The notes: generated by a model from the sequence alone, not told the origin. DNA of 64,000 nucleotides from Candidatus Moraniibacteriota bacterium (GCA_003483065.1 DMWY01000001.1:8606-72605); one strand, 5' to 3'. Counted from the first letter of the stretch, positions 14,838 through 62,851 are shown. Numbers and translations are program-made.

Positions 14838-16194
14838 GAGCGTTTAGAAATTTTTGTAAACCAAAAAGTAAGTCGGTATTAATACCATAAGAATAGAGAA
14901 GATTAATGAGGATAAAAAAGAATAACCCTAAATATAAAAATATTTTTATAATTATATGATGAAGTTTGTTCTTAATTAGCTCATCATTTAGTTTAAAGGA
15001 GAGCCATACACCATAGGCATATATGAGAAATGTAATTGGCCAAATAAAAACAAGAGATCTATCAGCATGTTCATTAATAGAGGATAATAATGTAAAAGTT
15101 AAAGCAGAAAAATAAAGAGAGAGAATTTTATATTGCTTATAATGAAATAAAATAAAGATTACATATATAAATATTATCACAAATGCAAAGTTAAAAAAAA
15201 TCCAATTAAAATATCTATCCTCAATAATCGCAAATCCAGGGAATAAGTCACTATATTTATAATGGTTTGTTTGTTTGCTTATTGCTGTTGTTGATGGCGA
15301 AGATGATGGTGATGGCGATGGCGAGAATGATGAAGAAGAAGATGAAGAAGATGAAGCTGAGGATGATAAAGATGATGAAGAAGATAAGACGGGACTTGTT
15401 TTTGGTGATTCAATAGTGGAATTAATAATATTAGAATTTATGATAAATGATTTGATGCCATAAGGATTATCCCCATCTAAATAATAAGATGTTGGAAGAT
15501 AAAAAATAAATAAAATGAAAATTGAAAGGGCTATTTTTTTTAGCATAAGCAAATCGATTTTTTTTATAAAAAAAGAATAAAAAATATAAAAAAGAGCTAG
15601 AGTTATCATTAAATATAAAAAGATTGTATGAGTATATAGTCCTAGCGGAATCAATACTAACAATATTATTTTCCAATGTTTATAATTGCCCAATATAATT
15701 GCAAATATAACAAATATTAATAAAACAGCAAAAAATCCAGGTACTATCCACCAAAATCCATGGTACCGGCCACCATTATATAGGGCGAGAAAAAAAAGCA
15801 AGAAAGCAATTAGCTTTTTGTCTGTTTCTATATTTTTTAAAAAAATAATCAACGAAGGCAATAGAATCAAAATTCCAATATAGAAGCTTAAATGAAAAAC
15901 ATCCACAGCCTTTATGTTTAGTAATTGACCAATAGAACCGAAAAATAATCGATAAGACAAATGTTCAAATCCAAAATAATCATTAAAAGAAGATAGAAAC
16001 TCTTCACAAGAAAAAAGAGAAGGACATTTAATAATTGAATTTATATGATATATGTATGTTTGAGCTTCCTCTCCTCTTGACCACTCGTGATCAAATAGAA
16101 CAGAAATTAAGAAAAATTTCCATCCAATAAAAAATAAGGAGGATAATAAAATCCACTTATTGCTTTTGATGAAAATTATAATTCTCTCAATCAT
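14818..16194 (-). CDS. Polytopic membrane protein with an internal Ser/Pro/Thr-rich low-complexity loop
   Basis: The sequence is highly hydrophobic and contains SSSSSLSSSASSSSSSSSSFSPSPSPSSSPSTT. It overlaps the asnB start by 20 nt. Confidence 0.45.
   Translation of the reverse strand: MIERIIIFIKSNKWILLSSLFFIGWKFFLISVLFDHEWSRGEEAQTYIYHINSIIKCPSLFSCEEFLSSFNDYFGFEHLSYRLFFGSIGQLLNIKAVDVFHLSFYIGILILLPSLIIFLKNIETDKKLIAFLLFFLALYNGGRYHGFWWIVPGFFAVLLIFVIFAIILGNYKHWKIILLVLIPLGLYTHTIFLYLMITLALFYIFYSFFIKKIDLLMLKKIALSIFILFIFYLPTSYYLDGDNPYGIKSFIINSNIINSTIESPKTSPVLSSSSSLSSSASSSSSSSSSFSPSPSPSSSPSTTAISKQTNHYKYSDLFPGFAIIEDRYFNWIFFNFAFVIIFIYVIFILFHYKQYKILSLYFSALTFTLLSSINEHADRSLVFIWPITFLIYAYGVWLSFKLNDELIKNKLHHIIIKIFLYLGLFFFILINLLYSYGINTDLLFGLQKFLNAHVWNNW
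15290..15440 (-). repeat. Trinucleotide-biased low-complexity DNA encoding the poly-Ser/Pro linker (coordinates approximate)
   Basis: (GAW)n-like runs on the + strand; the + strand mirror ORF 15275..15463 is poly-Asp/Glu. Confidence 0.6.
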
Positions 16195-17332
16195 TTTTTA
16201 GTATTTCTAGGTATTTTTCAATGGAATTTTCCCAACCAAAATTAATATTTAACTTAATTTTATTATTCTTTTTGTATCTTTTAATTTTTTCTTTATCTAA
16301 AATAAGCTCTGTTATTTTTTTTGCTACTAATTCTTTTTCTGATTTTTCAATCAAGAGTCCATTTTGATTATCTTGGATAACTTCATCCGCACCTTCATTG
16401 GGCGTAGCAATGATTGCACAGCCACAAGCCATTGCTTCCAGAAGGGAAGTTGAAAGTCCTCCCCCTGGCATTGAAGAATGCAGATAAATGTCAGAAATTT
16501 TTAGAATACTGATAACTTTTTCTCGTGGTAAATTCCCAAACATTTTTACGCAACTTTCTTTTTTGGATATTTTTTCTAGATATTGAAAATCTTCCCCGTC
16601 GCCAATTATCAAAAAAACAATTTTTTCTTTCAAGTCTTTGGGCAGAAGTTTTATTGCTTCGATACTATTTTCAACCCCTTTCCATTTGTATAATCTTCCA
16701 ATAAAAGAAATTATTATCTTATTTTCAAATTCTTTTTTTGTTTCTAAATCAGGAATAATTTTTTCAATAGCTTCAAAATCTAAACCGCGATAAATAATCG
16801 GCGACTCTCTTTTGTCGAACTTGAAAACAAATTTTTGAACAGCCTTGGAAATGGAAATGTTTAAATCGGAAAATCTAAAAATTAAAAATCCAAAAGTATA
16901 ATCATATGATTTTGCAATAGCCGTTTTGAAATTGCTTGAGAGTTTTACAAAATCTGAGCCATGCTCAATGTGGATCCAACGAACTTTTTTTATTTTAGCA
17001 TAAATAAGAGTGAGAAGCGAGGTATTGAAAAATCTAGTGCGAGAAATTGTGATATCAAATTTTTGATTGAATAATCTCAGAAAAAGCGACCAGAATTTCA
17101 ACGACCAAAATTTTGGCAGGGGATAATTGGAAATAATTTCAAAAGCTGGAAAACGAATAATTTTTACATTGTTGTATAGTATTTCAGATTCAGGAGAATT
17201 TTTTGGTAATTTCGGCGTAAAAACAGTTATATCTATCCCTCTTTGAGATAGATATTTATTGAATTCATCAGCGTGTGATTCTAGCCCGCCAGTATGAGGC
17301 GGGTAATATGGGCAAAATATTAGAAGTTTCAT
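16187..17332 (-). CDS. Glycosyltransferase family 4
   Basis: LEAMACGCAIIATPNEGADEVIQDNQNGLLIE is present. Confidence 0.7.
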   Translation of the reverse strand: MKLLIFCPYYPPHTGGLESHADEFNKYLSQRGIDITVFTPKLPKNSPESEILYNNVKIIRFPAFEIISNYPLPKFWSLKFWSLFLRLFNQKFDITISRTRFFNTSLLTLIYAKIKKVRWIHIEHGSDFVKLSSNFKTAIAKSYDYTFGFLIFRFSDLNISISKAVQKFVFKFDKRESPIIYRGLDFEAIEKIIPDLETKKEFENKIIISFIGRLYKWKGVENSIEAIKLLPKDLKEKIVFLIIGDGEDFQYLEKISKKESCVKMFGNLPREKVISILKISDIYLHSSMPGGGLSTSLLEAMACGCAIIATPNEGADEVIQDNQNGLLIEKSEKELVAKKITELILDKEKIKRYKKNNKIKLNINFGWENSIEKYLEILKND

Positions 17333-17685: not shown

Positions 17686-17711
17686 AATTTTAAATTTTTA
17701 ATTTTAAATTT
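17686..17711. repeat. Left inverted-repeat arm (2x AATTTTAAATTT) flanking the four-helix-bundle gene
   Basis: Its reverse complement AAATTTAAAATT occurs twice at 18141-18159. Confidence 0.5.
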
Positions 17712-17742
17712 GAAATGAAATATTAATTATTAAATTTTAAAT

Positions 17743-18111: not shown

Positions 18112-18140
18112 TTATAAATTTGATATTGATTAAAAATTAT

Positions 18141-18159
18141 AAATTTAAAATTTAAAATT
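18141..18159. repeat. Right inverted-repeat arm (AAATTTAAAATT x2, overlapping)
   Basis: Reverse complement of the left arm. It lies 2 nt downstream of the GT2 stop. Confidence 0.5.
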
Positions 18160-18952: not shown

Positions 18953-19891
18953 ATGTCAGAAAACAAAAAAATATCAGTGGTAGTGCCGTTGTATAACGAA
19001 GAGGGGAATGTCAAAAATTTGCATGCTAAGATTCTGAGTGCTTGTCAGAATCTTGGTCGAGAATTTGAAATTATTTTTATTGATGATGGATCGAAAGATA
19101 AGACAGTGGAAAACTGCCAAGGACTTTCGCCATTGAAGCTGATTGAATTTAGAAGAAATTTTGGCCAAACCGCTGCTTTTGATGCGGGGATAAAAAATGC
19201 CGAAGGAGATATTATTATCACGATGGATGGTGATTTACAAAATGATCCGGCAGATATTGGGTTGCTTTTAGAAGAAATGGAAAAAGGTTTTGATATTGTT
19301 TCCGGTTGGAGATTTAACAGAAAAGATAATTTTTCTAAAAAGTTCTTTTCACGGGGAGCTAATCTGCTTCGAAAGATTTTGATTCACGACAAAATACATG
19401 ACAGTGGCTGTTCTTTGAAAGCTTATCGAAAAGAGTGTTTTGCGGACGTGGATCTTTTTGGTGAAATGCATCGTTTTATCCCGGCACTTTTAGAATTGCA
19501 GGGGTATAAGGTGGGAGAAGTGAAAGTCTCGCATCATCCACGAGTCAGTGGAGTGACGAAATATAATTGGAAGAGGGGAATGAAAGGTTTTGTGGATATG
19601 GTTTCTATTTGGTTTTGGGGAAAATATTCCAACAGGCCGTTGCATCTTTTTGGCGGTTCAGGAATAATTTTGTCCTTGGCTGGTTTTGGAATCTTGACTT
19701 GGATGGCGATTGGAAAGATATTTTTTGCTATGTCACTTTCACAAAAAATTTGGCCACTGATGGGTGTGTTTTTTATCATGATTGGCATCCAACTTTTCAT
19801 TTTCGGACTTTTAGCTGATATTCTTGTTAAGAATTATTACAAAAGCCAAAATAGAATGAACTACTCGATTAAAGAGATAAAAGAATCATGA
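18953..19891 (+). CDS. GtrB/ArnC-like GT2 polyprenyl-phosphate glycosyltransferase with two C-terminal TM helices
   Basis: VVPLYNEEGNV, IFIDDGSKDKT, TMDGDLQNDP and a C-terminal hydrophobic pair are present. Confidence 0.8.
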   Translation: MSENKKISVVVPLYNEEGNVKNLHAKILSACQNLGREFEIIFIDDGSKDKTVENCQGLSPLKLIEFRRNFGQTAAFDAGIKNAEGDIIITMDGDLQNDPADIGLLLEEMEKGFDIVSGWRFNRKDNFSKKFFSRGANLLRKILIHDKIHDSGCSLKAYRKECFADVDLFGEMHRFIPALLELQGYKVGEVKVSHHPRVSGVTKYNWKRGMKGFVDMVSIWFWGKYSNRPLHLFGGSGIILSLAGFGILTWMAIGKIFFAMSLSQKIWPLMGVFFIMIGIQLFIFGLLADILVKNYYKSQNRMNYSIKEIKES

Positions 19892-19979
19892 AGCATGAAG
19901 CATATAACATGAAACATAAAATTAATTAAAAAATAATTCGTAATTCGTACATTTGTATGGATTCGTAATTCGTAAGGGA

Positions 19980-27835: not shown

Positions 27836-29629
27836 ATGACAAACCTATTAACCAAAAAATATGCCGTTGCGATTGTTATGCTAGCGATAGTCATCGGCGC
27901 TTTTACTTTCCGTTTTTACAATTTTTCTGATTGGTTATATTTCAAGATGGACCAATCGCGCGACGCGCAACTCATTAGTCATGCTATAAACGAAGGACCG
28001 ATGATGCTATCACTTTTGGGACCGAGAGCGGGCGCAACCGAAGTGGATAATGGCTTTTTGCGACTTGGTCCGGCCTATTATTATTTTCAATACATTTCTG
28101 GTTTTGTTTTCAATTCTACCGCTCCACAAGTCTTTGCCTATCCGGATTTGTTTTTTTCGATTTTGGGGATAATTTTGCTCTATTTTTTCTCGAGAATTTA
28201 TTTTTCCAAAAATATTTCACTTCTCATTTCGGCGATGTACGCTTTTTCTTTTATTGTGATTCAGTATTCTCGTTTTGCTTGGAATCCTAACTCGTTGCAA
28301 TTTTTTGCCCTGCTAACTTTTTTGGGACTTTTGAAATTTTTGAGCGAACAAAAATTAAAAAGAAAAATAGGCTGGCTAATTGTTTGGGCACTCGGGCTCT
28401 CTATTGGATCACAACTACATTTTTTTGGTTTCTTTGTGCTCACAGCTATTTCTGGGTGTCTCATTTTTTTTCACAGTCAATTTTGGCGATTACAAAAAAT
28501 CAAAGATATATTTCAGAAAAATATTTTGCAAAAAATAGCCGTTTATTCTTTGATTTTCATCTCTGTCTTCGCTTTGATTTATTCGCCTGTGATCATAAGC
28601 GACATAATGAGAAAGGGTGAAAACGCCGGAAATTTCATTCAAGCTTTGAGTTCTAAGGCGAAAAACAAAACTTTCGCAGAAAAAATATCCAAGAATTTTT
28701 CTGAGAATACTAAATATTATTGTCTCATCACCACTTCTTTTTGCGGAGAAGGGGAACCGTTTGATAGCGCAAAAAGTGCCTTGGCGTCAATTTTTTCGCT
28801 CGCATTGATTTTTTCCGGTTTGATTTTGATTGGGAAAGCCTTGCAAAAAGAAAAGAGTATTGAGAGGAGAAATTTTTTGGCGTTGCTGTTTTTATGGGTA
28901 GGCATGTTTTTCATTTTTACTTTTCCGGTTTCTTTTCAGCTTCGTCCAAGATTTTTCATTCTAGTTTTTGCTGTGCCATTTTTGCTTAGCGGAATAATAT
29001 TTGATTTTTTTCAAGAAAAATGGACAAAAAAAGCAATGTATTTTATTTTGGTATTTGCAACTATGATAATTGGATTAAATATATATGGAACACTGGCATG
29101 GTTTTCGGAGATGAATCAATCTCAAACTAAGGATGTGGAAATAAGTCGTACGTTGATTTTGAAAAACCAAGATGGTGTGACTTTAGGTGAACTGCAAAAA
29201 GCATCGGATTTTATCTATGAAAAAAGAAAAATAGGCAAAGACGTTTATTATTATGTAAAACCTGAGCATATAAATCCGATAAAATATATTTTAGCGCAAA
29301 AGAAAGACGCTAATTTTGTTTATGCGACTTTAAGTTTAAATGAAAATCCTAATGCTCAGTATTTTGCGATTATTCCTTCTGATGCTGATCCAAAAAAAGT
29401 TTTGGAAAAAAAATATGAAGTGCCGGTTGAGATATTATCTTCTCAAAATTGTGGCCAAATTTCAGTTTATGAGATAACTTTTCCCGAAAGAACTATTTCT
29501 AAGAATTTCAGATTTAACAAAAAATATTCCAAAACCGATCGACTTTTTTGGAAAGATGTTTTTGGAATAAGGAAAAGTTCAATTGAGGACGAAGATGAAT
29601 TAACTGATGATATAAATATGAATGAGTAA
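27836..29629 (+). CDS. GT-C-like membrane glycosyltransferase, 'DQSRD' paralog 1
   Basis: RFYNFSDWLYFKMDQSRDAQL...LGPAYYYF...PDLFFSIL...QYSRFAWNPNS is present. Confidence 0.5.
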   Translation: MTNLLTKKYAVAIVMLAIVIGAFTFRFYNFSDWLYFKMDQSRDAQLISHAINEGPMMLSLLGPRAGATEVDNGFLRLGPAYYYFQYISGFVFNSTAPQVFAYPDLFFSILGIILLYFFSRIYFSKNISLLISAMYAFSFIVIQYSRFAWNPNSLQFFALLTFLGLLKFLSEQKLKRKIGWLIVWALGLSIGSQLHFFGFFVLTAISGCLIFFHSQFWRLQKIKDIFQKNILQKIAVYSLIFISVFALIYSPVIISDIMRKGENAGNFIQALSSKAKNKTFAEKISKNFSENTKYYCLITTSFCGEGEPFDSAKSALASIFSLALIFSGLILIGKALQKEKSIERRNFLALLFLWVGMFFIFTFPVSFQLRPRFFILVFAVPFLLSGIIFDFFQEKWTKKAMYFILVFATMIIGLNIYGTLAWFSEMNQSQTKDVEISRTLILKNQDGVTLGELQKASDFIYEKRKIGKDVYYYVKPEHINPIKYILAQKKDANFVYATLSLNENPNAQYFAIIPSDADPKKVLEKKYEVPVEILSSQNCGQISVYEITFPERTISKNFRFNKKYSKTDRLFWKDVFGIRKSSIEDEDELTDDINMNE

Positions 29630-31412: not shown

Positions 31413-33038
31413 ATGAATTTTTTGAAAAAAATTGGCAGAAAAGAAAAAATAATAGTCGTTATTAGTTTTCTTGTTTTTTTGGTTATTGGAATATTTTTGC
31501 GAACATACCATTTCTCTGATTGGCTTAGATTTAATATGGATCAGTCGCGTGATGCAGAATTGATAGAAAACTTGAGTGAAAACAATGATTTGCCAAAATT
31601 AGGCCCGGGAGCGGGCGGAACAGAATTTCAATTGGGCCCGGCATTTTATTATTTTCAATTAATTTCAGCAAAAATATTTGGCGTGGAGCCGGAAAAATTA
31701 GCTTATCCGGACTTGTTTTTTTCAATTTTGTCGATCGGCCTGTTCTTTCTTTTGGTAAAAATTTATTTTGAAATTCCCATCGCATTGACTTTGACTTGGC
31801 TGTATTCAATTTCATATTTTGTGGTTAAATTTTCTCGTTTTGCTTGGAATCCAAACTCTACGCCATTTTTTGTGATGTTTTTTATCTATGCGCTTTATAA
31901 TTTGGCAATTTCACAAAAAAGGAAAATTGTTTGGGCAATTTTGACAGGAGTGTCTTTGGGAATTTGCATTCAATTACACACCTCGCTTTTGATAATTCTG
32001 CCGATACTTTCTTTTTTTGTAGCTATTATTTTTATCAGGAAAAAAATAGTTTCGACAACTATAATAGTAATTGTTATCGCAACTACTATTTTTGCTAATG
32101 TTCCACAAATTGTCACGGAAATTAGAAGTGGCGGATTTAATTCCAAACAATTTATATTGGGGATTACTAATAAAAATGAGCGAAATAATAGCTGGGCGAA
32201 TAATCTTGCCTTGAATTTTTCTTGTCATATCAAAACCAATAATCACATCCTTACTTCCATGGGAAATGAAAATGAGTGCGGGTATGAAAATGATTGGAAA
32301 ACATTCAAGAAGTTGGATGGCAAAAGAATGACTATTGGAGAAAAAATATTTTTTGTTGCATCAATTTTGCTATCATTGATATTTTCATTGGGAGGATATT
32401 TTCTTCTATTTAAAAAAACTATAAAAGAAAGCGATAAGAATAAAAAACTTTTCTTGGGTTTTATAGTGGGTTATATATTTTTGTCTTTTGTTTTCTACAT
32501 AACTTGGGCTACTGAATTGGCAGTGCGTTTTTTCCTGCCATTGTCATTTGTTCCGTTTATAATCCTAGGTTTTTGGTTGAATTTTTTTGAGAAAAAATTC
32601 AAAAAAGGCCTATGGATTGTGGTAATAATCATTGCTAGCATTTCGTTTTTTAATTTGCAAAAAATATCACATACGTACAGGGATTTGCAATATGGCGGGA
32701 AGGAGATTAATGGCGATTTTGATTATCTGACTTTAGGAGAGGGAAAATATGTGGTTGATTTTGTCAAAAACAATACTGATAAAAAAACAAACGTTATCGA
32801 TGCGCAAGCTGGTTATCTTTTTAAATCAATTCGCTCACTTCAATTTTTGGCGGGGAAAGAAAATATCGAAATAATTCAACTGAAAAAAGAGATTGAATTA
32901 AATTCTGGAGACAGACTGTTTTATTTGAAAAATGCTGAGAATAAATGCGAACTCTCTCAAGAGATAGCAAAAAAATATGACATTGAAAAATGTTCAATTT
33001 TTCGCCAATTTTCAATTTTTGTATTAAAAGTTAAATAA
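31413..33038 (+). CDS. GT-C-like membrane glycosyltransferase, 'DQSRD' paralog 3
   Basis: RTYHFSDWLRFNMDQSRDAEL...KFSRFAWNPNS is present. Confidence 0.5.
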   Translation: MNFLKKIGRKEKIIVVISFLVFLVIGIFLRTYHFSDWLRFNMDQSRDAELIENLSENNDLPKLGPGAGGTEFQLGPAFYYFQLISAKIFGVEPEKLAYPDLFFSILSIGLFFLLVKIYFEIPIALTLTWLYSISYFVVKFSRFAWNPNSTPFFVMFFIYALYNLAISQKRKIVWAILTGVSLGICIQLHTSLLIILPILSFFVAIIFIRKKIVSTTIIVIVIATTIFANVPQIVTEIRSGGFNSKQFILGITNKNERNNSWANNLALNFSCHIKTNNHILTSMGNENECGYENDWKTFKKLDGKRMTIGEKIFFVASILLSLIFSLGGYFLLFKKTIKESDKNKKLFLGFIVGYIFLSFVFYITWATELAVRFFLPLSFVPFIILGFWLNFFEKKFKKGLWIVVIIIASISFFNLQKISHTYRDLQYGGKEINGDFDYLTLGEGKYVVDFVKNNTDKKTNVIDAQAGYLFKSIRSLQFLAGKENIEIIQLKKEIELNSGDRLFYLKNAENKCELSQEIAKKYDIEKCSIFRQFSIFVLKVK

Positions 33039-38247: not shown

Positions 38248-39366
38248 TTAGATTTCTTTATAAATTTCTTGATAAATTTCGGCGATTTTTTTGATGTCGA
38301 AATTTTCCTCACAAAATTTTCGGGCATTTTTTCCAAGGAGGTTTCTTTTTTCCTTGTTTTGATATAAATCAGAAATCGCATCAGTTAATTGTTTTAGATT
38401 GTCTTTCTCAATTATAACAGAATTATTATTATTGCCCAATTCTTTTAGAATTTCCAGATTTGTTAGAATGACCGGTTTTTCGCAAGCCATCGTTTCAATA
38501 ACTGCTAGGGGAATATCAAATTTGCCGTGCATATTTTGCACTGGAAAAAGACTGATGTCGCAGAGATTATAAACTTCCCTCATGTCGTATTTTCCATCAT
38601 CAAAAAAAGAAACTTTTTCCAGGAGATTATTTTTTTTTATTTTTTCCATAACCTCTTCTTTTTTCTGCGCGTCTTTTTCGTTTTTAATTCTAACTGCCAG
38701 GGTGAGTTTAGCTTCGGGAATTTTTTTGGAAATTTCAATGAAACTATCAACAACTAAATCAATCGCGCCAAGGCGCACATATTCTCCAGAAAAATTTATC
38801 ACAAAATCATTCGGTGAAATATTTTTCTCTTTCATAAGCCCCAAGTTTTTTTCTTGAGGTTGATATTTTTCCAGATCAATTCCTGGGTAAACCCTTTTGA
38901 CATTTTGAAACCCAAGGGAATTTAATTTGCTCTTGGCATAATCGGAATAGGTGATGATAAGATCGGCAAACATCAAATTTTTTATGTCATCCGACGACCA
39001 TAAATCGTCGCGAAGAGAGGCGACAGTTTGAATAGTTTTAGTTTTAAAAGATTTGAAAAAATGCTTAATCAGGAAGGAGTTGAGTTTGGTTGGAGTGAAG
39101 AAATAATGATTGATATCAAACTGACCTTTAGTTTTGAATTGAAAAAAAAGAGCGCGAATTTTTTGAGAAAAGTTAAAATCGCGAATTTCTGAAGTTGAAT
39201 AAACCGAATGCTGGTGAACATTATCAGATAATTCAGGCAAAATTCCCTTGGTCATCAGATTAATTTCAAAACCCGCTAGGTTTTTTGCTAGGTAATATGC
39301 AAAATTTTTTGAACCTTCGTCCCACGGCGGGGCAATCGGCCTCGTTACTAGAAGTATCTTTTTCAT
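38248..39366 (-). CDS. Glycosyltransferase family 4
   Basis: VIETMACEKPVILTN is present. Confidence 0.65.
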   Translation of the reverse strand: MKKILLVTRPIAPPWDEGSKNFAYYLAKNLAGFEINLMTKGILPELSDNVHQHSVYSTSEIRDFNFSQKIRALFFQFKTKGQFDINHYFFTPTKLNSFLIKHFFKSFKTKTIQTVASLRDDLWSSDDIKNLMFADLIITYSDYAKSKLNSLGFQNVKRVYPGIDLEKYQPQEKNLGLMKEKNISPNDFVINFSGEYVRLGAIDLVVDSFIEISKKIPEAKLTLAVRIKNEKDAQKKEEVMEKIKKNNLLEKVSFFDDGKYDMREVYNLCDISLFPVQNMHGKFDIPLAVIETMACEKPVILTNLEILKELGNNNNSVIIEKDNLKQLTDAISDLYQNKEKRNLLGKNARKFCEENFDIKKIAEIYQEIYKEI

Positions 39367-39737: not shown

Positions 39738-41633
39738 TTATTTTTTATAATATACCGCTACGTCACCGTTGTTATAAACCTTGCTAAAATTTTTGAGTTT
39801 TGCAAATTGGGAGCTGTCAAATTTTGGATTAACTAGGATATAATTAGTTTTTGTTTCTTGAAAGCATTTTTGAGCGTCTTGACCGGCCGGATTGGAAATC
39901 ATATAGAGAGTGCACATTTCACGAGGTTTAGTGGGATCTTCATAACGCTTAAAATAGCCACGAGACTGAGGGTATCTATAGCCTTGCATAAAAAACAATT
40001 TTATCCAAGAATCTGCAGTGATATAATTATGATCTTTTAGAATCACATCTTCATTGTTAGTATTTTTCACTAGATAATTGGAGGCATCATAGGTTTCAAT
40101 AACGGGAGTGAAATCAGGGGCTTTTTTGAAAGCTTGAACGCTGTCGAGCAGTCCGCCAGTTAAAACAAAAATTAGGATAATTAAAAACGAACCATCCAGA
40201 AACTTTTTGGGAATTATTTTTTTTGAGTTGACCAAATTAGAATTGAAAATGGAGAATAATCCATAAGCAGAAAGAATCGCAAGGGGATAGCTCATATAAT
40301 TTCCAATACGAGAGCTGGGTAAGTTGATGAAAATTAATTCTGGTTTGGTGGACATGATAAAAAGCATAGCTGTCCAAGCGGAAACTAAAGTGAATCCAAA
40401 GTTTTTTCTTTTATAATTTAGAGCCAAAAGTAGAAGCCCTAGAAATCCAAGAGCCAAACGAACCTCACCAACGGAAGACTTTATGTTATCCATACTCAAT
40501 CCTTCGCGAGTGGCTTTCGAGGGTGTGCCGACAGCAGTTTCTACGGCGTTAGTACGCACATAATTTGGAGTGAAGATGAAAAAGAAAAAAATCAATCCGA
40601 TTGCAAAAGTTGTGATAACAGGAATGGAAAAAACCAAATCAAATATTTTTCCAAAGATATTTTTCAAATCCTTATAATTTAGAATTAAGAAAACAACAAT
40701 AAGAAAAGAAAAAATAAATAAGAATATAAAAGCAGTGAGATGATGTGTATAAAAAAGTCCGAAAGTGGAAAAAATTCCAAGTGAAAGAAATTTTCTTGAA
40801 TCAAAAAGTGAAACTGTGTCATAATTTAGAAGTTCGGAAGCTCTGAGATAAAAATAGAAGGCCATAGGCATCAAGAGATTTCCCAAAATATTTCCCATTA
40901 CGCCTCCACTAACAAATTTGGCTTGAGGAGAGGAAACAGCAAAAAGAACTCCCAAGAAAAGAATTGAAAGAATGGCAATGTTTTTGTTTTTGAAAACTCG
41001 TAAAGTCAAAACAAAAACAGTGAGAATACTAAGGAGATTAATGAGTAGTAAAAAAATAACTGGGAAAGCTGAAAAGAAACTTTTCCCACTAAGCATATTT
41101 ATCTCTGACAGGGCAATGTGTTCGCCAATGATAAAATCGGGCATTCCTTCATAAACAGGAAGTTTGTGTGTTTCAGACATTTCCTTGGCCCAATAGTTGT
41201 GATGTCCCATATCGGTGGCAGTTGGAGCAACTGTTCCGCTAAGGTAGGCAGTTTTGATAAAAATTGTCAAAAACAAAAGAAGTAAAAGGAGGAAAAATTG
41301 ATTCTTTGAAAAAGAAAATAATTCATCTTCTTTTACGTTAACATTTTCAATCTTTTTTAGTTTATAAAAAATAAAACAAGTTATCGAAAAAAATAAAACT
41401 CCTAAAACAGAAGAAATAGCAGTGATCGGAATGTTTAGTTTGGAATAAGCAAATGCTATAAAATCGACAACAATCAAACTTAGTCCAAAGGAAAAAATAA
41501 ATCTTTCCATTTTACTTATTTGATTTTCGCCTTTGCTAAAAACCGCCAAAAGCAAAAAATACCCCGGAACAAACAGAATTACTAAAATAGATATATAAAA
41601 TAAAACTTGACTGTAAATAAATTCAAATGTCAT
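39738..41633 (-). CDS. Large polytopic membrane protein (possible GT-C-like or polymerase); family not recognised
   Basis: The protein is 631 aa with more than 12 hydrophobic segments. Confidence 0.35.
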   Translation of the reverse strand: MTFEFIYSQVLFYISILVILFVPGYFLLLAVFSKGENQISKMERFIFSFGLSLIVVDFIAFAYSKLNIPITAISSVLGVLFFSITCFIFYKLKKIENVNVKEDELFSFSKNQFFLLLLLLFLTIFIKTAYLSGTVAPTATDMGHHNYWAKEMSETHKLPVYEGMPDFIIGEHIALSEINMLSGKSFFSAFPVIFLLLINLLSILTVFVLTLRVFKNKNIAILSILFLGVLFAVSSPQAKFVSGGVMGNILGNLLMPMAFYFYLRASELLNYDTVSLFDSRKFLSLGIFSTFGLFYTHHLTAFIFLFIFSFLIVVFLILNYKDLKNIFGKIFDLVFSIPVITTFAIGLIFFFFIFTPNYVRTNAVETAVGTPSKATREGLSMDNIKSSVGEVRLALGFLGLLLLALNYKRKNFGFTLVSAWTAMLFIMSTKPELIFINLPSSRIGNYMSYPLAILSAYGLFSIFNSNLVNSKKIIPKKFLDGSFLIILIFVLTGGLLDSVQAFKKAPDFTPVIETYDASNYLVKNTNNEDVILKDHNYITADSWIKLFFMQGYRYPQSRGYFKRYEDPTKPREMCTLYMISNPAGQDAQKCFQETKTNYILVNPKFDSSQFAKLKNFSKVYNNGDVAVYYKK

Positions 41634-41670
41634 ATTATTTCAAGTGTAATCATTTTAATCATTTGCTAAC

Positions 41671-41690
41671 CCGCCTACCGGCGAGGCAGG
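41671..41690. repeat. GC-rich hairpin element (reverse complement reads CCTGCCTCGCCGGTAGGCGG); supplies the last codons and stop of the GT4 gene
   Basis: It is near-identical to 44283-44303 and related to 57668-57687. Confidence 0.5.
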
Positions 41691-42811
41691 TCAGTGGTTC
41701 TGATTACTTTTTCCATCTCCTCCAAATATCTCTTCGAAATTTTTTCCCAGGTGAAATTTTCTTGTACATATTTTCCAGCCATTTCTCCGAAATTCTTGGC
41801 AAATTCCGGTCCAGCGGAAAAAATAGCGTTGATTTTTTTGATCCATTGTTCAGTGTTTTCACTTTCAACTAGAAAACCGTTCTTGCCATCCTTAATCGCG
41901 TCAGCCAAGCCTTGCATATTCGAAGCTATGATTACTCTTTCGCAAGCCGCAGCTTCAATTGCGTTTATGCCAAAACCTTCTGAGGAACTTTTATAATGAA
42001 TATTAGGAGAGACTACTAAATCAGCCGTGTTTAGCAAAACTCTCAAATCCTTTTGTGGAATGTTAGGGATAAGTTTTACTCTGTTTTCTAAATTGTTTTT
42101 TGTTATCTCTTTTTCACAATCGGAAAAATTGTCTGGATCGCCAGCGGTATTTCTATCAACACGACCTCCTACAGCGAATAGGATTATATTTTCTGGTAGG
42201 CGAGGCATTATATTTTTAATAAACCAAGCAGTGCCTTTATGCGGAACAAATCTGCCTAGACGCAAGATGACTTTTTTGTCTAAAGTATCTTTGCCCCAAA
42301 GAGCAGACAAGTCTTGTCGAGAAAATTCTTTTCTGAAATTTTCAATAAAAACTCCATTAGGAATAAAAACGCAATTTTCCTTAGGTACTCCAATTTTTAT
42401 AGCTTCTTCGACAGCAAAATTTCCCACCATAAAAAGTTTGTCCATTTTCTTTATCGAAGGAATATTTGTGAGGCTATAAATTTTTGGTAAAATTCCTTTC
42501 TTATGACAAAACGTTATATCGAGCGCATGGATAATTGAAAAAAACTTTTTTTTAGGATGAAAAAGTTTTAGGGAAAAAGCTAGGGGAGCTAAAACGCCAT
42601 TCCCTACGAGACAGGCGTCATAATTCATCATTAAAAAAAATGCGCGCAGGAAAGTTATTGGCACAAAAACCGGAAGCCACCATTTGCCACGACCATTGGC
42701 GATAATCTTAACTTGGGTGATTTTTGAAAGTCCTTGAGCTAAATTATAATTTTGACTTTCCACCCCACCAAGAATTGGAGGATAGGAGTGAGAGATGAAT
42801 AATATTTTCAT
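41675..42811 (-). CDS. Glycosyltransferase family 4
   Basis: GINAIEAAACERVIIASN is present. Confidence 0.7.
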   Translation of the reverse strand: MKILFISHSYPPILGGVESQNYNLAQGLSKITQVKIIANGRGKWWLPVFVPITFLRAFFLMMNYDACLVGNGVLAPLAFSLKLFHPKKKFFSIIHALDITFCHKKGILPKIYSLTNIPSIKKMDKLFMVGNFAVEEAIKIGVPKENCVFIPNGVFIENFRKEFSRQDLSALWGKDTLDKKVILRLGRFVPHKGTAWFIKNIMPRLPENIILFAVGGRVDRNTAGDPDNFSDCEKEITKNNLENRVKLIPNIPQKDLRVLLNTADLVVSPNIHYKSSSEGFGINAIEAAACERVIIASNMQGLADAIKDGKNGFLVESENTEQWIKKINAIFSAGPEFAKNFGEMAGKYVQENFTWEKISKRYLEEMEKVIRTTDLPRR

Positions 42812-42831
42812 TGACTTTATAACTTTTAACT

Positions 42832-43815
42832 TTATAACTTATTATATTTATCTTTTTTCCATTGATAGAAAAGTTCTTCGGTGAGTTGGCGGGCGGATTT
42901 GATCATGTCAGCAATGAGAGCAAAAACAACCAGTTGAATTCCAAGGAGCAAAGAGATAGCAGAAAAAACTATATAATGAAGATAGGGGGCGATTTTCAAA
43001 TCCTGAATATAATTAAAAAGGAAAATGAGAAATCCGATAATTCCGATTGACATCAAAAATATTCCTGGCCAACCGAAAAATTTAAGTGGCCTGACATCGC
43101 GAATAGCTTTTAGGATAATTTTGAAGGAGTTGCTAATGAATTTGAAAATAGATTTTGTAATTTTAGCTTCGCGGTTGTCAAAATAAGTGACAACTATCGG
43201 TATCCACTTTAGTTTTAGATTTTTTCCAATAGCATCAATAATAGTATCTTGTGTGTAGGTGAAATAAGTATTGGTTAAATTAAGGCGAAGTAATGTTTCG
43301 CGATTATGAGCGCGAAAACCACAAGTTAGGTCGTTAGTTTTATAATTTAGAAAAAATCCGATAATGGAAGCGGCAAAGCGATTAAAAAAACTTCGAACCC
43401 ATGGGATATTTTTAGCTTTGTGCTTACCAAAGCGATCGGCGATTGTCATATCCACTTCACCTTTGAGTATCGGAAGGAGAAGTTTAGGAATGTCATTAGG
43501 ATCGAACTGTCCGTCGGCGTCGATATTGACCATGAAGTCAGCGCCTTTCTCCAAGGAACTTTCTACGGCTTGTTTGAAAGAATAGGCGAGTCTTCGATTG
43601 GGTTTGTAGGAAATGACAATATCAGCTCCAGAATTTTTGGCAACTTCGGCGGTATTGTCGCTTGAGCCGTCGTCCACTACTTGAATTAATTTTTCAGTAA
43701 TACGCGCACCTTCCTCAGAATAGAAATCATTCGAAAGACTTTCCTTGATTCTGACAATTGTTTTTCCAAGATCCTTCTCTTCATTATAGGCTGGAATGTT
43801 GATGATTAATTTCAT
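42832..43815 (-). CDS. GtrB/ArnC-like GT2 polyprenyl-phosphate glycosyltransferase with C-terminal TM helices
   Basis: INIPAYNEEKDL, VVDDGSSDNT and NIDADGQFDP are present, with two C-terminal TM segments. Confidence 0.8.
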   Translation of the reverse strand: MKLIINIPAYNEEKDLGKTIVRIKESLSNDFYSEEGARITEKLIQVVDDGSSDNTAEVAKNSGADIVISYKPNRRLAYSFKQAVESSLEKGADFMVNIDADGQFDPNDIPKLLLPILKGEVDMTIADRFGKHKAKNIPWVRSFFNRFAASIIGFFLNYKTNDLTCGFRAHNRETLLRLNLTNTYFTYTQDTIIDAIGKNLKLKWIPIVVTYFDNREAKITKSIFKFISNSFKIILKAIRDVRPLKFFGWPGIFLMSIGIIGFLIFLFNYIQDLKIAPYLHYIVFSAISLLLGIQLVVFALIADMIKSARQLTEELFYQWKKDKYNKL

Positions 43816-44161: not shown

Positions 44162-45388
44162 ATGAGTATGAAAAAGAAAAAAATTGGAATCAATGCAAGT
44201 TATCTTCGAAAGCCTCACACTGGTATTGGGCAAGTGACAACCAACTTTTTAAAAATGTTGGTAAGAGACAAGATACAAGAAACCTGCCTCGCCGGCAGGC
44301 AGGCAAGATACAAGCAGGATGATTTGGAGTTTGTTTTGTATTTAGAAGAAGATATTCCAAAAGATTTTAAACTTCCTGATAATTTTAGCAAGAAAATATT
44401 CCTACCGGTTTATAAGCGTGATGATTTGATTCGAAAAATTTGGTGGGAAAAATTTCTTTTGCCGCGCCTCGTTAGAAAAGACGGTTGCGATGTTTTCATC
44501 AGTCTCTACCAAAGTCCGACTGTTTTGGATAAATCAATCCGTCACATTATGATAGTGCATGATATCATCCCAAAACTATTTTCGCAGTATTTGGATAATG
44601 CAAGAAAGAAATTATATTGGAAATTAATGGAATATGGCATAAAAATGGCGGACAAGATTATTGCTGTTTCCAAAAGGACAGAAAAAGATCTAATTGAACA
44701 CTTAAGTATAGGCGCAGACAAAATTACTACTGAATATATTGATGTGGATGATACATATAAGATAGAGGCGCAAAATTTTGCGTCTCTGCGAGAGCAAAAT
44801 ATTTTAAAGAAGTATAAAATAAATCCAGGATATATTTTGGCTGGTGGAGGATATGAAGTGCGCAAAAATGTTGAAGGAGCGGTGCGAGCATATAAATTAC
44901 TACTAGAAAGAAACAAAAAAGAAAATTTTTTGCCAAATTTTCCGCGCCTTGCGATATATGGAAAAGTTTTGCCGGAAAGTTTGAGTTTGGCGACGCCGAT
45001 AGAAAAAATATTGAGAGAATTAAACTTAACAAAACATGTGATTCTTTTGGGCGAAGTTCCGCAAAAAGATTTACCGGCTCTTTTTGAAAATGCTGTCATA
45101 TTTATTTATCCTTCTTTTTATGAAGGTTTCGGAATGCAAATTCTCGAAGCAATGAATGTTGGCACGCCTGCTATCACTTCAAAGGTTTCCTCATTGCCGG
45201 AAGTCGGTGGAGATAGTGTGTTATATTGTAATCCTGATGACATATCGGATATTGCGATGGTTTTGAAAAATGTTTTGACTAATTATGACTTGCGAGAACA
45301 ACTAAAAAACAGAGGTCAAGAACGAGCCAAGCAATTTTCGTGGGAAAAATTTAGTGAGAAGATTTTGAATATAATCGAAGAAATGTAA
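44162..45388 (+). CDS. Glycosyltransferase family 4
   Basis: EGFGMQILEAMNVGTPAITS is present. Confidence 0.75.
   Translation: MSMKKKKIGINASYLRKPHTGIGQVTTNFLKMLVRDKIQETCLAGRQARYKQDDLEFVLYLEEDIPKDFKLPDNFSKKIFLPVYKRDDLIRKIWWEKFLLPRLVRKDGCDVFISLYQSPTVLDKSIRHIMIVHDIIPKLFSQYLDNARKKLYWKLMEYGIKMADKIIAVSKRTEKDLIEHLSIGADKITTEYIDVDDTYKIEAQNFASLREQNILKKYKINPGYILAGGGYEVRKNVEGAVRAYKLLLERNKKENFLPNFPRLAIYGKVLPESLSLATPIEKILRELNLTKHVILLGEVPQKDLPALFENAVIFIYPSFYEGFGMQILEAMNVGTPAITSKVSSLPEVGGDSVLYCNPDDISDIAMVLKNVLTNYDLREQLKNRGQERAKQFSWEKFSEKILNIIEEM
44281..44303. repeat. GC-rich palindromic mini-insert AACCTGCCTCGCCGGCAGGCAGG inside the GT4 gene, flanked by an 11-bp direct repeat CAAGATACAAG (44269-44279 and 44304-44314)
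   Basis: Read directly from the sequence. It encodes the ETCLAGRQAR segment. Confidence 0.55.
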
Positions 45389-49594: not shown

Positions 49595-50440
49595 TTGTTT
49601 TATGTTTCATGTTTTATGTTTCATGATCCAATGGAATTATCCATCATCATTACTAATTATAAAAATCCGGAACTCTTGAAAGTTTGTATTGATTCGATTA
49701 GGGAAAATATCACATTGCATGATTATGAAATTATTGTGGCGGATAGTGAGACAGAAGAAAAAACCGAAATGATGATGAGAGAGGAATATCCCCAAATAGA
49801 ATTTATTCCATCGAAAAAAAACATTGGCTTTAGCGGAACTGTTAACGCTGGATATCAGAAAGCTAAAGGAGAATACATACTTATTCTCAATGGTGACACT
49901 ATAATAAAAAAAGATTCGATCGAAAAATTGTTAAGCTATATCAAAAATAATCCCAATGTTGGCATAGTCGGACCACGTCTTTTGGGTTTCAATGAAAAAC
50001 CACAAGATTCTTGTTTTCGCTTTTATACCCCGCTAACTATCGTGTATCGCCGGACATTTTTGGGTAAATTTGGTTTTGCTAAAAAACATTCAGATAATTT
50101 TCTTATGAAAGATTATGATCATAAGGAGATAAAAGAAGTTGATTGGATTCAGGGATCGGCGATGATGACAAAAAAAGAGATTATGGATAAGGTTGGTTTG
50201 ATGGATGAAAAATATAAGCTATATTTTGAAGATGTGGATTGGTGTCGAAGATTTTGGGAAAAAGGTTATAGCGTTGTTTATTATCCAGACTCCGAAATCT
50301 ATCATTATCATGGCAGAGGAAGCGCGGGCAGAAGCGTTATCCAGTCATTACTTTCTAACCGTTTAACTTGGTGGCACATAAAAAGTGCAGTGAGATATTT
50401 TTGGAAATATTGGGGTAAGCCATTACCAAAACATAACTAG
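49595..50440 (+). CDS. Glycosyltransferase family 2
   Basis: LSIIITNYKNPELL, DSETEE and NGDT are present. 49595 is a TTG; the ATG at 49631 (MELSIIIT) is the more plausible start. Confidence 0.75.
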   Translation: MFYVSCFMFHDPMELSIIITNYKNPELLKVCIDSIRENITLHDYEIIVADSETEEKTEMMMREEYPQIEFIPSKKNIGFSGTVNAGYQKAKGEYILILNGDTIIKKDSIEKLLSYIKNNPNVGIVGPRLLGFNEKPQDSCFRFYTPLTIVYRRTFLGKFGFAKKHSDNFLMKDYDHKEIKEVDWIQGSAMMTKKEIMDKVGLMDEKYKLYFEDVDWCRRFWEKGYSVVYYPDSEIYHYHGRGSAGRSVIQSLLSNRLTWWHIKSAVRYFWKYWGKPLPKHN

Positions 50441-57642: not shown

Positions 57643-57667
57643 AAAATTATTATTTAGTAGTAAGCTT

Positions 57668-57687
57668 GTCTGCCGATGAGGCAGGTA
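57668..57687. repeat. GC-rich hairpin GTCTGCC-GATGA-GGCAGGTA in the divergent intergenic region
   Basis: It has the same CTGCC-N5-GGCAG architecture as 41671-41690 and 44283-44303. Confidence 0.4.
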
Positions 57688-57709: not shown

Positions 57710-57737
57710 TTGACAGTTTTTTAAAAGGCGCTATAAT
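57710..57737 (+). promoter_or_regulatory. sigma70-like promoter TTGACA, 16 nt, TATAAT, followed by a near-palindrome TACTAAATTAGTA (57745-57757) before the Rrf2 start
   Basis: Read from the sequence. The palindrome is a candidate Rrf2/IscR autoregulatory site. Confidence 0.5.
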
Positions 57738-57770: not shown

Positions 57771-58157
57771 ATGAAGTTTTCTACAAAAGCAGAATACGGG
57801 CTTAGAGCAATGGTTAATTTAGCCAGCTGTTTTCCTGAACTCAAAAATATTAAAAGTATTTCCCAAGAAGAAAAAATATCAGCCAAGTATTTAGAGAGAT
57901 TAATTGGAGAATTGCGAGAAAGAAAAATAGTGAAAAGTTTGAAAGGAAAAAATGGGGGATATGTTTTAGCACGAAAGCCGGAGCAAATAACCGCTGGGGA
58001 AATTATTGAAATTATGGATGGCTCGATGGTACCGAAATGTTATGGCAATCAATGTACTCACATGAAGACTTGTGCTTCCAGTTTCGTGTGGATAAAATTA
58101 GGTGAGCAAATTAGAAAAACTTTGTATGGGATTAAGTTAGGTGATTTAATAAAATAA
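57771..58157 (+). CDS. iscR: Rrf2-family transcriptional regulator (IscR-like, 3-Cys cluster ligands)
   Basis: MKFSTKAEYGLRAM is the HTH. CYGNQCTHMKTC supplies the cysteines. Confidence 0.8.
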   Translation: MKFSTKAEYGLRAMVNLASCFPELKNIKSISQEEKISAKYLERLIGELRERKIVKSLKGKNGGYVLARKPEQITAGEIIEIMDGSMVPKCYGNQCTHMKTCASSFVWIKLGEQIRKTLYGIKLGDLIK

Positions 58158-59387: not shown

Positions 59388-59452
59388 TGTTTGTAAATTT
59401 ATTAAAGTTTCTTTATGAACTTTTAACTTTATAGACTTTTAACTTAACTTAT

Positions 59453-61321: not shown

Positions 61322-62851
61322 TTATATTTTGCCTATTGTATTTTTTAATCTCGATGATGTTTCTTCTTTCCCAAGCACCCAAGCGCATTCAAAGGGTGAA
61401 GGTGATTTTTTCTCTCCCGTAAGCGTGGCGCGCAGTGGCCAGAGGAGCTCTCCCCTATTTTCTCCCGCAGATTCCATCAGAATTTTTTCCAAATTTTCGC
61501 GTGTCCAATTCTCGTCCGTTATATTTTCCAAAACGTTCAAAGATTTTTCCAGGGATTTTTTCAAGTCATCGTCCGACATATCTTTCCAGCGTAAAAGTTC
61601 CTTGTCAAAATTTGCGTCGTGAAAAAAGAACTGATTACTCTCCCCCACTTCTGACAAATTTTGTAAACGGTCTTGTTCGATTGACAAAACTTTCTTAATA
61701 TATTCGTCCGATTTTTTTTCTGCGCTAGTATTTTTATAAAACTCTTTTTCTTTGAAAAATTCCAAAGATTTTTCATACAATTCTTCAATGGAAAGTTTTT
61801 TTATCCACTGCGAATTTATCCAATCTAATTTTTTGATGTCAAAAACTGCGCCCGCTTTATGAACATGCGCCAAATCAAATTTTTCCACTAATTCATCAAG
61901 CGTGAAAATTTCCTGCGTTTCTCCTTTTCCTGGATTCCAACCGAGCATTGCCACGAAATTGATAATCGCTTCCTTGAGATAGCCTTTCTTTATATAATCT
62001 TCCACCGCCACATCACCTTGGCGTTTGGAAAGTTTGGATTTATCAGGATTAAGAAGAAGCGGTAGATGAGCGAATTTTGGAGCTTCCCAGCCAAAATAGC
62101 GATATAATAGAATATGAATCGGCATACTTGGAAGCCATTCTTCACCACGAATAACATGAGTAGTTTGCATATCATGATCATCTATAACACTAGCCAGATG
62201 ATAGGTTGGAAATCCATCAGATTTTAGAAGTATTTGATCGGTAACTAAATTAGTATTGAATTTAACACGTCCTCGAATTACGTCATCAACCTCAATCGTT
62301 TCATCTTGTGGAACTTTAATTCGAATAGTATAAGGACAATTATTTTTTAGATTTTTATTTATTTCTTCTTCACTAACATTTTGTAAGCAAAATCTATCAT
62401 AAATAGGGGGTTGTTTTTTGGCGGTTTGTTCTTTCCTCATTTCCTCGAGTCTTTCTGGTTCACAAAAACAATAGTAAGCATAACCATTTTTTACCAGCCC
62501 ATCAGCATATTTTTTGTAAATTTCTAATTTTTCTGATTGAATATATGGCCCATACTCGCCCACTTCAAAAACTCCAGGGTAATTTTTTGATTCCTGACTA
62601 TTTGCATTGTTACTTAACACTTTACTTAACATCACTCCTTCATTTCTTTCTAATCCCAGAAAATCCAGTGAATTTATTAATTTTTCCACCGCACCTTCGA
62701 CAAATCTTTTTCGATCAGTATCTTCAATTTTAAGTAGAAAATCGCCACTATTTTTTTTGGCAAATAAATAGGCATAAAGCGCAGTTCGAAGACCTCCTAC
62801 ATGTAAGTATCCGGTCGGCGACGGCGCAAATCTAGTTCTGATTTTGTTCAT
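61322..62851 (-). CDS. gltX: Glutamyl-tRNA synthetase
   Basis: RFAPSPTGYLHVGGLRTALYAY (HIGH region) and KLSKRQ (KMSKS-like) are present. Confidence 0.9.
   Translation of the reverse strand: MNKIRTRFAPSPTGYLHVGGLRTALYAYLFAKKNSGDFLLKIEDTDRKRFVEGAVEKLINSLDFLGLERNEGVMLSKVLSNNANSQESKNYPGVFEVGEYGPYIQSEKLEIYKKYADGLVKNGYAYYCFCEPERLEEMRKEQTAKKQPPIYDRFCLQNVSEEEINKNLKNNCPYTIRIKVPQDETIEVDDVIRGRVKFNTNLVTDQILLKSDGFPTYHLASVIDDHDMQTTHVIRGEEWLPSMPIHILLYRYFGWEAPKFAHLPLLLNPDKSKLSKRQGDVAVEDYIKKGYLKEAIINFVAMLGWNPGKGETQEIFTLDELVEKFDLAHVHKAGAVFDIKKLDWINSQWIKKLSIEELYEKSLEFFKEKEFYKNTSAEKKSDEYIKKVLSIEQDRLQNLSEVGESNQFFFHDANFDKELLRWKDMSDDDLKKSLEKSLNVLENITDENWTRENLEKILMESAGENRGELLWPLRATLTGEKKSPSPFECAWVLGKEETSSRLKNTIGKI

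Follow-up and report, generated by a model that had tools for sequence, protein, structure and literature searches.

Within a 64,000-nt stretch of DNA from Candidatus Moraniibacteriota bacterium (GCA_003483065.1 DMWY01000001.1:8606-72605; hereafter the window), the GT4 glycosyltransferase gene at 44162..45388 carries a G+C-rich palindrome which, by alignment with close orthologs that lack it, is shown to be a DNA-level insertion. On the genome matches that we list, the inserted 21-nt sequence is shown to be nearly invariant across many phyla. Our preferred reading, held with moderate confidence, is that the palindrome is a copy of a 21-nt non-autonomous hairpin element, similar to repetitive extragenic palindromes (REPs), that inserts at single-stranded loops and around which heptamer repeats slip.

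The three open reading frames (ORFs) named in the initial annotation are all GT4 glycosyltransferases by Pfam, and the GT4 orthologs are labelled Candidatus Moranbacteria (Candidate Phyla Radiation, CPR/Patescibacteria) at source. Synteny with annotated contigs identifies the locus as a cell-envelope glycan cluster (DUF1616, GT4, GT2, small ORF, GT4, Wzy_C, GT4, LytR_cpsA_psr). An alignment of 45 orthologous proteins reveals that the loop between ...NFLKKL... and ...EFILYLEED... is hypervariable and rich in indels, with the segment absent from many members. The ortholog comparison suggested in the initial annotation was decisive at the DNA level: the closest-relative loci L125 (TTGGCAAGAGACAAAAATAAT) and L126 (TTGGCAAGATACAAACAAAATGATTTGGAG) represent empty sites, whereas the window has the filled site TTGG-TAAGAGA-CAAGATA-CAAGAAA-[CCTGCCTCGCCGGCAGGCAGG]-CAAGATA-CAAGCAGGATGATTTGGAG, longer by 42 nt (14 codons), which comprise three extra CAAGATA-like heptamers and the 21-nt hairpin. 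The other alignment suggested there, between the paralogs 44162 and 47081, was uninformative (30% identity, aligned only from residue 92). The empty orthologous sites, together with the occurrence of the 21-mer in unrelated genes, both orientations, several frames and many phyla, bear out the earlier view of a DNA-level element as opposed to a protein motif.

Read-through translation of the insertion contains TCLAGRQA within the spanning peptide ...KIQETCLAGRQARYK..., and the peptides reported previously, ETCLAGRQAR here and DLPRR* at the C-terminus of the neighboring GT4, are both as stated. In the AlphaFold model of the GT4 (mean pLDDT 89.9, pTM 0.88), the insertion lies between helix 1 (residues 21-34) and strand 2 (residues 55-61), and confidence is lowest at the insertion itself (mean pLDDT 53, residues 41-50); so read, the window copy is translated as a segment of a predicted flexible loop. 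The frame used by the window copy, which contains Cys and Arg, is a rare one within the family. An identical GT4 protein sequence is recorded on 5 contigs. The two copies of the 11-bp repeat that flanks the hairpin are spaced 35 nt apart, which is not a multiple of 3, and each is read in another frame. Translational bypass between them was rejected, since skipping 35 nt shifts the frame into TGA, and removal of the hairpin from the mRNA is likewise unsupported, since the heptamers are needed for the frame and intragenic copies show reading-frame selection.

The hairpin unit has sharp boundaries and reads, after a leading purine (R), CCYG-CCTGCC-GGCGA-GGCAGG, that is, a 4-nt head (CCYG) and a 6-bp G+C stem (CCTGCC/GGCAGG) closed by the 5-nt loop GGCGA. 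Paired differently, the unit has an 8-bp stem with one bulged G; the fold energy of either pairing is about -7 kcal/mol (as DNA). Against the A+T-rich background of the window (33% G+C), a scan with the family consensus, at a tolerance of 6 mismatches, detects exactly three members in 64 kb (starting at 41670 on the + strand, 44283 on the - strand and 57665 on the + strand; Table 1), compared with 0-2 matches in block shuffles. Positions 44281-44303 read AACCTGCCTCGCCGGCAGGCAGG, with CAAGATACAAG on each side (44269-44279 and 44304-44314), precisely as the initial annotation described. Its near-identical reverse complement was also recovered: a search with the copy-1 21-mer at up to 3 mismatches found itself and the reverse complement at 41670-41690 only, and 0 matches in 100 dinucleotide-preserving shuffles. 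Copy 1 scores as terminator-like on the antisense strand.

The third hairpin mentioned in the initial annotation is real and extends to a full 21-nt unit, which defines a subfamily: it is identical to the main unit at 17 of 21 positions, and all 4 differences are transitions. The copy-3 21-mer also occurs in L021 (two tandem copies), L135 and L126, the last being nested within another hairpin downstream of the orthologous GT4. A perfect sigma-70 consensus (TTGACA, 16-nt spacer, TATAAT) stands at 57710-57737, 25 nt downstream of copy 3 and upstream of ORF 57771-58157. Another G+C-rich hairpin, CCCGCCAGTATGAGGCGGG at 17285-17304, was rejected as a family member: it encodes the conserved PPHTGGL, an N-terminal motif of the GT4-like ORF 16187-17332 (-), and PP..GG motifs in G+C-rich codons can imitate these palindromes.

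Copy 2 is shown, by comparison with orthologs, to have rebuilt the C-terminus and stop codon of the neighboring GT4 gene (41675-42811). The orthologs end in ...EEMEKVSK* and lack the element, while the window frame continues into it, so that copy 2 supplies the last codons, LPRR, and a TAG stop; the stop is due to a G-to-A stem variant in copy 2. A segment of ~80 nt, consisting of copy 2 and both its flanks, is common to the window (41610-41760) and Moranbacteria UBA4824 (L008, 1120-1280), where it lies downstream of an HtrA-like protease gene instead of a GT4; either the hairpin was the breakpoint of a rearrangement or the repeat unit is a larger one.

Table 1. Hairpin copies, host genes and heptamer repeats in the window
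Feature	Coordinates	Strand	Remarks
Copy 1	44283..44303	-	CCTGCCTGCCGGCGAGGCAGG on the - strand; within GT4 gene; predicted translation (T)CLAGRQA
Copy 2	41670..41690	+	CCCGCCTACCGGCGAGGCAGG, preceded by A; 2 mismatches vs copy 1; overlaps the 3' end of GT4 41675-42811
Copy 3	57665..57685	+	CTTGTCTGCCGATGAGGCAGG, preceded by G; GATGA-loop subfamily; intergenic, between divergent ORFs
Host gene 1, GT4 glycosyltransferase	44162..45388	+	insertion at residues ~35-48
Host gene 2, GT4	41675..42811	-	C-terminus remodelled to ...IRTTDLPRR*
Three extra heptamers TAAGAGA CAAGATA CAAGAAA	44262..44282	+	imperfect copies of local CAAGATA; absent from empty sites
Resident heptamers CAAGATA CAAGCAG	44304..44317	+	far side of hairpin; 44304-44314 is the second 11-bp repeat copy
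AATTTTA x8 array	17686-17742		
TTAAAAT x4 array	18130-18159		
GAAACAT x5.6 array	19883-19921		
TAATTCG x5.4 array	19934-19975		
TTATAAC x3.6 array	42817-42842		
TGTTTCA x4.3 array	49596-49625		
CTTTATAA x4.4 array	59411-59445		

The extent of the family was measured on one genome per species (596 Gb) with the pattern CCTRCCGGCGAGGCAGG, and the family counts given here derive from the matches listed. The 21-mer pattern is present at no fewer than 120 loci (at least 120; individual loci carry the prefix L), in unrelated genes and in intergenic DNA, in both orientations. The hosts among the matches listed are strongly skewed to CPR and Bacteroidota and also include Omnitrophota, Elusimicrobia, Acidobacteriota, Planctomycetota and others; Bacteroidota are represented both by megabase contigs and by cultured isolates (Aureibaculum, Arenibacter, Agriterribacter and Zunongwangia). 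By locus count alone, a similar number could arise by chance in 596 Gb. Chance is made less likely by this host skew, by a 5' extension, CCYG, that the pattern did not specify (101 of 111 listed matches in loci below 56% G+C, and 8 of 16 in high-G+C genomes), and by the base preceding the unit, a purine in 100 of the 112 listed copies. Among units with a GATGA loop, a search anchored on a single arm gave five with CTGCC/GGCAG arms, four with CCGCC/GGCGG arms and none with mixed arms, which is compensatory change. Loop variants share loci with the perfect palindrome CCTGCCTGCCGGCAGGCAGG.

Copies are nested in the loops of larger palindromic elements in L115 (two copies), L070 and L068. The window contains no Rfam match at gathering score and no tRNA gene, and Rfam applied to eight hairpin-bearing loci returned tRNA genes only, away from the hairpins. 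As for phage as a vector, only 4 matches were found in 2.9 million viral contigs. The searchable papers contain neither the 21-mer sequence nor any account of such repeats in CPR, and searches among papers citing the work on Rickettsia palindromic elements gave no account of the 21-nt family.

Several individual loci show further arrangements of the unit. In L115 (two copies), L070 and L015, the 21-mer occupies the loop of a G+C-rich palindrome, GTCATTGCGAGCGA...AGCGAAGCAATC or GTCATCCCGA...TCGGGATGAC, that is read as VIAS..AKQS in ORFs and recurs in several CPR lineages. Head-to-tail tandem units with no spacer or an 8-nt spacer occur at L037 (~1244-1306, within a 620-codon open frame), L021 (4082-4123) and L077 (5510-5560). 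At L025 (7455-7515), the hairpin splits a tRNA-like 5' fragment (GCCCCCGTAGCTCAGTGGATA, hairpin, GAGCAGTGGTTTCC); we rejected an interrupted tRNA gene, as ARAGORN calls no gene there, and the fragment may be the remnant of an attachment site. An exact 21-mer at L052 (1474-1494) lies in a 415-codon open frame on a contig binned as Bathyarchaeota archaeon, reflecting either bin contamination or a cross-domain occurrence. A pair of hairpins 3.4 kb apart in L005 was considered as element ends and dismissed, since both belong to an intergenic segment of 96 nt that is duplicated.

More than half of the listed copies (62 of 112) fall within open frames of at least 150 codons, where they read PASPAGR/G, xPAGEAG or LPRRQAG in unrelated proteins. 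For 37 copies deep in long ORFs, 28 use two of the six frames (16 xPAGEAG and 12 PASPAGR/G) and the other four frames share 9; 19 are same-sense and 18 antisense, and the intragenic copies are thus not oriented relative to transcription. Compared with solved structures, the uvrA copy adds a net 7 residues, or exactly 21 nt (LAVTF-PASPAGGSE-KNI vs LAVTI-GG-KNI), and the gatB loop with a copy is ~25 residues longer. All frames of the main unit are free of stop codons. Its survival within genes is due to this, to a length of exactly 7 codons (21 nt), and to the persistence of copies mainly in two frames whose peptides are rich in Pro/Ala/Gly. The intragenic copies thus seem to be translated, with selection on the encoded peptide acting as a filter.

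We then consider the repeats around the hairpin. Of the copies, 16.5% lie between direct repeats of 8 nt or more, vs 1% of controls. When the flanks are joined, enrichment is seen at period 7, weakly at period 8, and at no other period. Across the element, the repeats keep to an offset of 21+7, other offsets being at background. Six or seven of 7 identical bases abut both ends in 14 of 103 copies (~14%), and ~85% of copies lack a flanking repeat. Flanks inverted over 8 nt or more occur at 9.3% of copies vs 1.4% of controls. In the window, the period-7 array runs TAAGAGA CAAGATA CAAGAAA, hairpin, CAAGATA CAAGCAG. The initial annotation read the 11-bp direct repeat as resembling a target-site duplication and as suggestive of insertion or replication slippage. 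A gain by insertion or slippage is supported, while a classical target-site duplication is not, the repeat being part of a heptamer array of a kind seen at ~14% of copies and also at hairpin-free sites. Among the multi-copy short tandem repeats of the window, heptamer arrays predominate, 7 of them hairpin-free (Table 1), and heptamer repeats are over-represented in bacteria, with polymerase slippage as the proposed cause (PMC4692102). Since 21 = 3x7, the register test gives the same result for a 7-bp target duplication, for insertion into an array and for slippage. Those hairpin-free window arrays whose sequence and ORF context were inspected are intergenic.

The same GT4 loop has been remodelled in other ways among the orthologs. 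The same hairpin, in the orientation opposite to that of the window copy, lies among AAAGTYA heptamers in L124, L151, L001/L131, L002 and L003; the inverted copies of L001 and L003 have a further hairpin nested at their stem-loop junction. A different perfect palindrome, GTAG-GGACAGGTCGCGACCTGTCC-GTAC, occupies the loop in L127, L128 and L129, the last being the closest relative (89% identity). The loop of L136 holds TGCCTGCCGGCAGGCA flanked by 13-nt direct repeats, that of L135 another hairpin within an AGTTAAA array, and that of L154 a decayed copy within an AATTTCC array, while hairpin-free arrays of 3-4 heptamers are present at the loop in L137, L142, L149/150, L155 and L185. This variety of hairpins and arrays indicates that the GT4 loop turns over rapidly. 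On a neighbor-joining tree built without the loop, the loop states are interleaved and therefore need several gains, losses or replacements.

The palindrome GTAG-GGACAGGTCGCGACCTGTCC-GTAC represents a second family in Moranbacteria, found at L127 622-649, L129 655-682 and L151 ~2090-2117. Its GTAG head is typical of REPs. Three relatives have this palindrome in that same GT4 loop, and L151 has it at an unrelated site.

We propose that the 21-nt unit would be selfish but non-autonomous: an enzyme whose gene lies elsewhere would copy it in trans, in the form of a single-stranded hairpin, in the style of REPs and their associated tyrosine transposases (RAYTs) or of IS200/IS605. Insertion would make no obligatory target duplication, as suggested by the abutting repeats at only 14 of 103 copies and the clean +21 nt in uvrA. 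The preferred targets would be transiently single-stranded DNA, i.e., the loops of other palindromes and slipped tandem repeats, a preference that we base on the period-7 flanks, the inverted flanks and the nested copies. Flanking 7-nt tandem copies, including the 11-bp repeat, would come from replication slippage at or around the hairpin, and within genes only net lengths divisible by three would persist, here 21 + 3x7. The asymmetry of the unit, with one extra G, resembles the extrahelical bases used by IS608 TnpA and the integron integrases.

A number of observations weigh against this proposal. A crude tblastn search for the mobilizing enzyme, with an approximate IS200 TnpA query, gave 0 matches in the window and 1.3 Mb of loci, where one gene per genome is easily missed. 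The head is CCYG and not the GTAG or CGTC of known REP superfamilies, the density is low (3 copies per 64 kb), and near-identity across phyla is atypical for lineage-specific REPs. No target motif beyond the -1 purine was seen among the 112 listed copies, an enzyme with a fixed stagger might instead explain why the unit is exactly 7 nt, and neither presence/absence within a population nor an excision intermediate was observed. A bolder version of the proposal, which is possible although we regard it as doubtful, holds that one 21-nt hairpin has spread nearly unchanged through at least six bacterial phyla (CPR, Bacteroidota, Omnitrophota, Elusimicrobia, Acidobacteriota and Planctomycetota, and possibly an archaeal metagenome-assembled genome), inserting into single-stranded loops, including those in the middle of essential genes. 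It would be the smallest and most widely distributed mobile DNA described and would imply a conserved hairpin-transposition machinery, and heptamer arrays would in part be its footprints.

The main rival is a nano-transposon that moves by cut-and-paste with a 7-bp staggered cut, each insertion duplicating 7 bp of its target, so that excision leaves the duplication behind and successive cycles build heptamer arrays as footprints; the 11-bp repeat of the window would then be a true target duplication plus an older footprint. This would account for a repeat register of exactly 21+7 above background offsets, for flank enrichment only at period 7 with little at period 8, for heptamer sequences that are locus specific and derived from the local target, for the rise from about one heptamer copy in the empty sites to four in the filled site, and for the hairpin-free arrays of 3-4 units in the orthologous loops of L137, L142, L149, L155 and L185. 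On the other hand, ~85% of otherwise perfect copies have no flanking repeat and the copy in uvrA adds 21 nt and nothing more; insertion into an array already present would preserve the same register (21 = 3x7); and even away from hairpins no multi-copy short tandem repeat is commoner in the window than the heptamer array, while an excess of heptamer repeats is reported for bacteria at large (PMC4692102). We judge cut-and-paste transposition unlikely, while a functional cis-element under selection (a protein binding site, a DNA-uptake-type signal, or an RNA stabilizer or terminator, with intragenic copies as tolerated by-products) seems to us decidedly unlikely. The 21-mer is indeed nearly invariant across phyla, with compensatory stem changes; intergenic copies in L026, L057 and L109 stand between A-runs and T-runs like bidirectional terminators, copy 3 is just upstream of a consensus promoter, copy 1 is terminator-like in antisense, and copy 2 is conserved in L008. 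Yet the hairpin is patchy among close orthologs, with different palindromes swapping at one site, has no orientation preference relative to transcription, occurs as nested and tandem copies and in the middle of essential genes, and gives no Rfam match in the window or in eight hairpin-bearing loci.

Phase variation, in which slippage of heptamers in the 5' part of the gene for a surface-glycan glycosyltransferase would turn that gene on and off, with the hairpin incidental or slippage-promoting, is very improbable in our estimation. The array does occupy codons ~34-52 of a GT4 gene whose cluster (GT2, GT4, Wzy_C, LytR_cpsA_psr) is one for cell-envelope glycans, many orthologs have 3-4 heptamer units at the same spot, and gain or loss of one 7-nt unit shifts the frame; however, the arrays are short and imperfect (only two perfect units in the window), hairpin-plus-heptamer insertions are also found in gatB and other housekeeping genes, and no length polymorphism was seen, the same protein being recorded on five contigs. 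Both a selected site and phase variation fit the patchy, nested and orientation-free distribution less well than does a REP-like hairpin element. There remains a local origin, either by slippage or template switching in place or as a conserved protein motif written in G+C-rich codons. PP..GG motifs do mimic palindromes, as at 17285-17304 (PPHTGGL), and CCTG/CAGG repeats are slippage-prone, but this explanation is scarcely credible given an identical 21-mer in more than 100 unrelated loci, empty sites in close orthologs, a segment that is not conserved in the protein family, and a unit used in different frames.

The usual view of small palindromic repeats is that each belongs to one lineage and lies between genes, whereas this 21-nt unit crosses phyla and resides repeatedly in housekeeping and cell-surface genes. 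Its cross-phylum near-identity, the high share of in-frame intragenic copies and the tie to heptamers make it more interesting than a routine REP-like repeat, and the mechanism put forward for its spread is a candidate one. If mobile, the unit would set a lower size limit for transposable DNA, would repeatedly give the proteins of genome-reduced bacteria short Pro/Ala/Gly-rich loop insertions and altered C-termini, and would point to a trans-acting enzyme common to very distant bacteria. It also offers a concrete, testable tie between hairpins and the long-noted bacterial excess of heptamer tandem repeats. In practice, copies introduce indels and spurious "conserved motifs" into protein alignments, and assembly or annotation artefacts into metagenome-assembled genomes.

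The window also has similar G+C-rich patches 3.6 kb apart, at 28016-28041 (GGGACCGAGAGCGGGCGCAACCGA) and 31598-31624 (AGGCCCGGGAGCGGGCGGAACAGA), which are maybe a paralog protein motif or another repeat, and further such patches at 39313-39345 and 61414-61448.

Among known systems, the family resembles REPs and REPINs in being a short, imperfect, G+C-rich palindrome with a conserved 4-nt head beside the stem, dispersed in either orientation and mostly without target duplication. REPs have occasional intragenic copies and can donate a stop codon to a neighboring ORF, and their superfamilies are defined by a GTAG or CGTC head (PMC3733652). The 21-nt family is likewise intragenic and stop-donating in places, and other mobile DNA inserts into the loops of both. 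It differs in its CCYG head and 21-nt unit, in that over half of the sampled copies lie in ORFs whereas REPs are mostly extragenic, and in its near-identity across phyla, in contrast to the lineage specificity of REPs. REPs come in many copies per genome and often as inverted pairs, and the genome typically has a RAYT (Y1 HUH) transposase gene with REPs on its flanks. No inverted pairs of the REPIN type are present in the window, with its 3 copies in 64 kb, and no RAYT gene was matched by the approximate IS200 TnpA query in a search space of only 64 kb of the host genome and 1.3 Mb of loci. Because the GTAG/CGTC head is lacking and a RAYT association is not established, we do not file the family as REP. 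It also departs from miniature inverted-repeat transposable elements, which are deletion derivatives of DDE transposons and for which terminal inverted repeats and a fixed-length target-site duplication would be expected at every copy; here repeats abut 14 of 103 copies, and the uvrA copy adds exactly 21 nt.

Rickettsia palindromic elements (RPEs), reportedly described by Ogata et al. in 2000, are said to form Rickettsia-specific families of ~105-146 bp. They are palindromic selfish DNA, found in frame in many unrelated genes of a small A+T-rich genome, where they are translated and tolerated in surface loops. RPEs are listed in PMC3184786. The 21-nt unit is similarly in frame in unrelated genes (GT4, uvrA, gatB and others) with a reading-frame bias, but it is five to seven times shorter and its hosts are CPR, Bacteroidota and others. 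The cyanobacterial small dispersed repeats SDR4-6, reportedly described by Elhai et al. in 2008, are said to be hairpin-forming, mobile-looking repeats of 21-27 nt that are nested and occur in a genome rich in heptamers (short tandemly repeated repetitive sequences, STRR). SDRs lie mostly between genes and have reportedly been linked to heptamers. They are like the 21-nt family in size and nesting; they probably differ in sequence, and they differ in host range, being reported only in Nostocaceae.

The GC clusters of yeast mitochondria, to which the 'byp' elements are related, offer a last comparison. These are G+C-rich palindromes of 30-50 nt in an A+T-rich genome, with a putative AG target duplication that is not always present; their distribution is sporadic, with rapid turnover and merger or nesting, and their mechanism is unresolved (PMC4478555). 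The 21-nt family shares with them the A+T-rich genome context, the turnover and the nesting. GC clusters belong to a eukaryotic organelle, however, and the 21-nt copy in the window is read through in frame and not bypassed.

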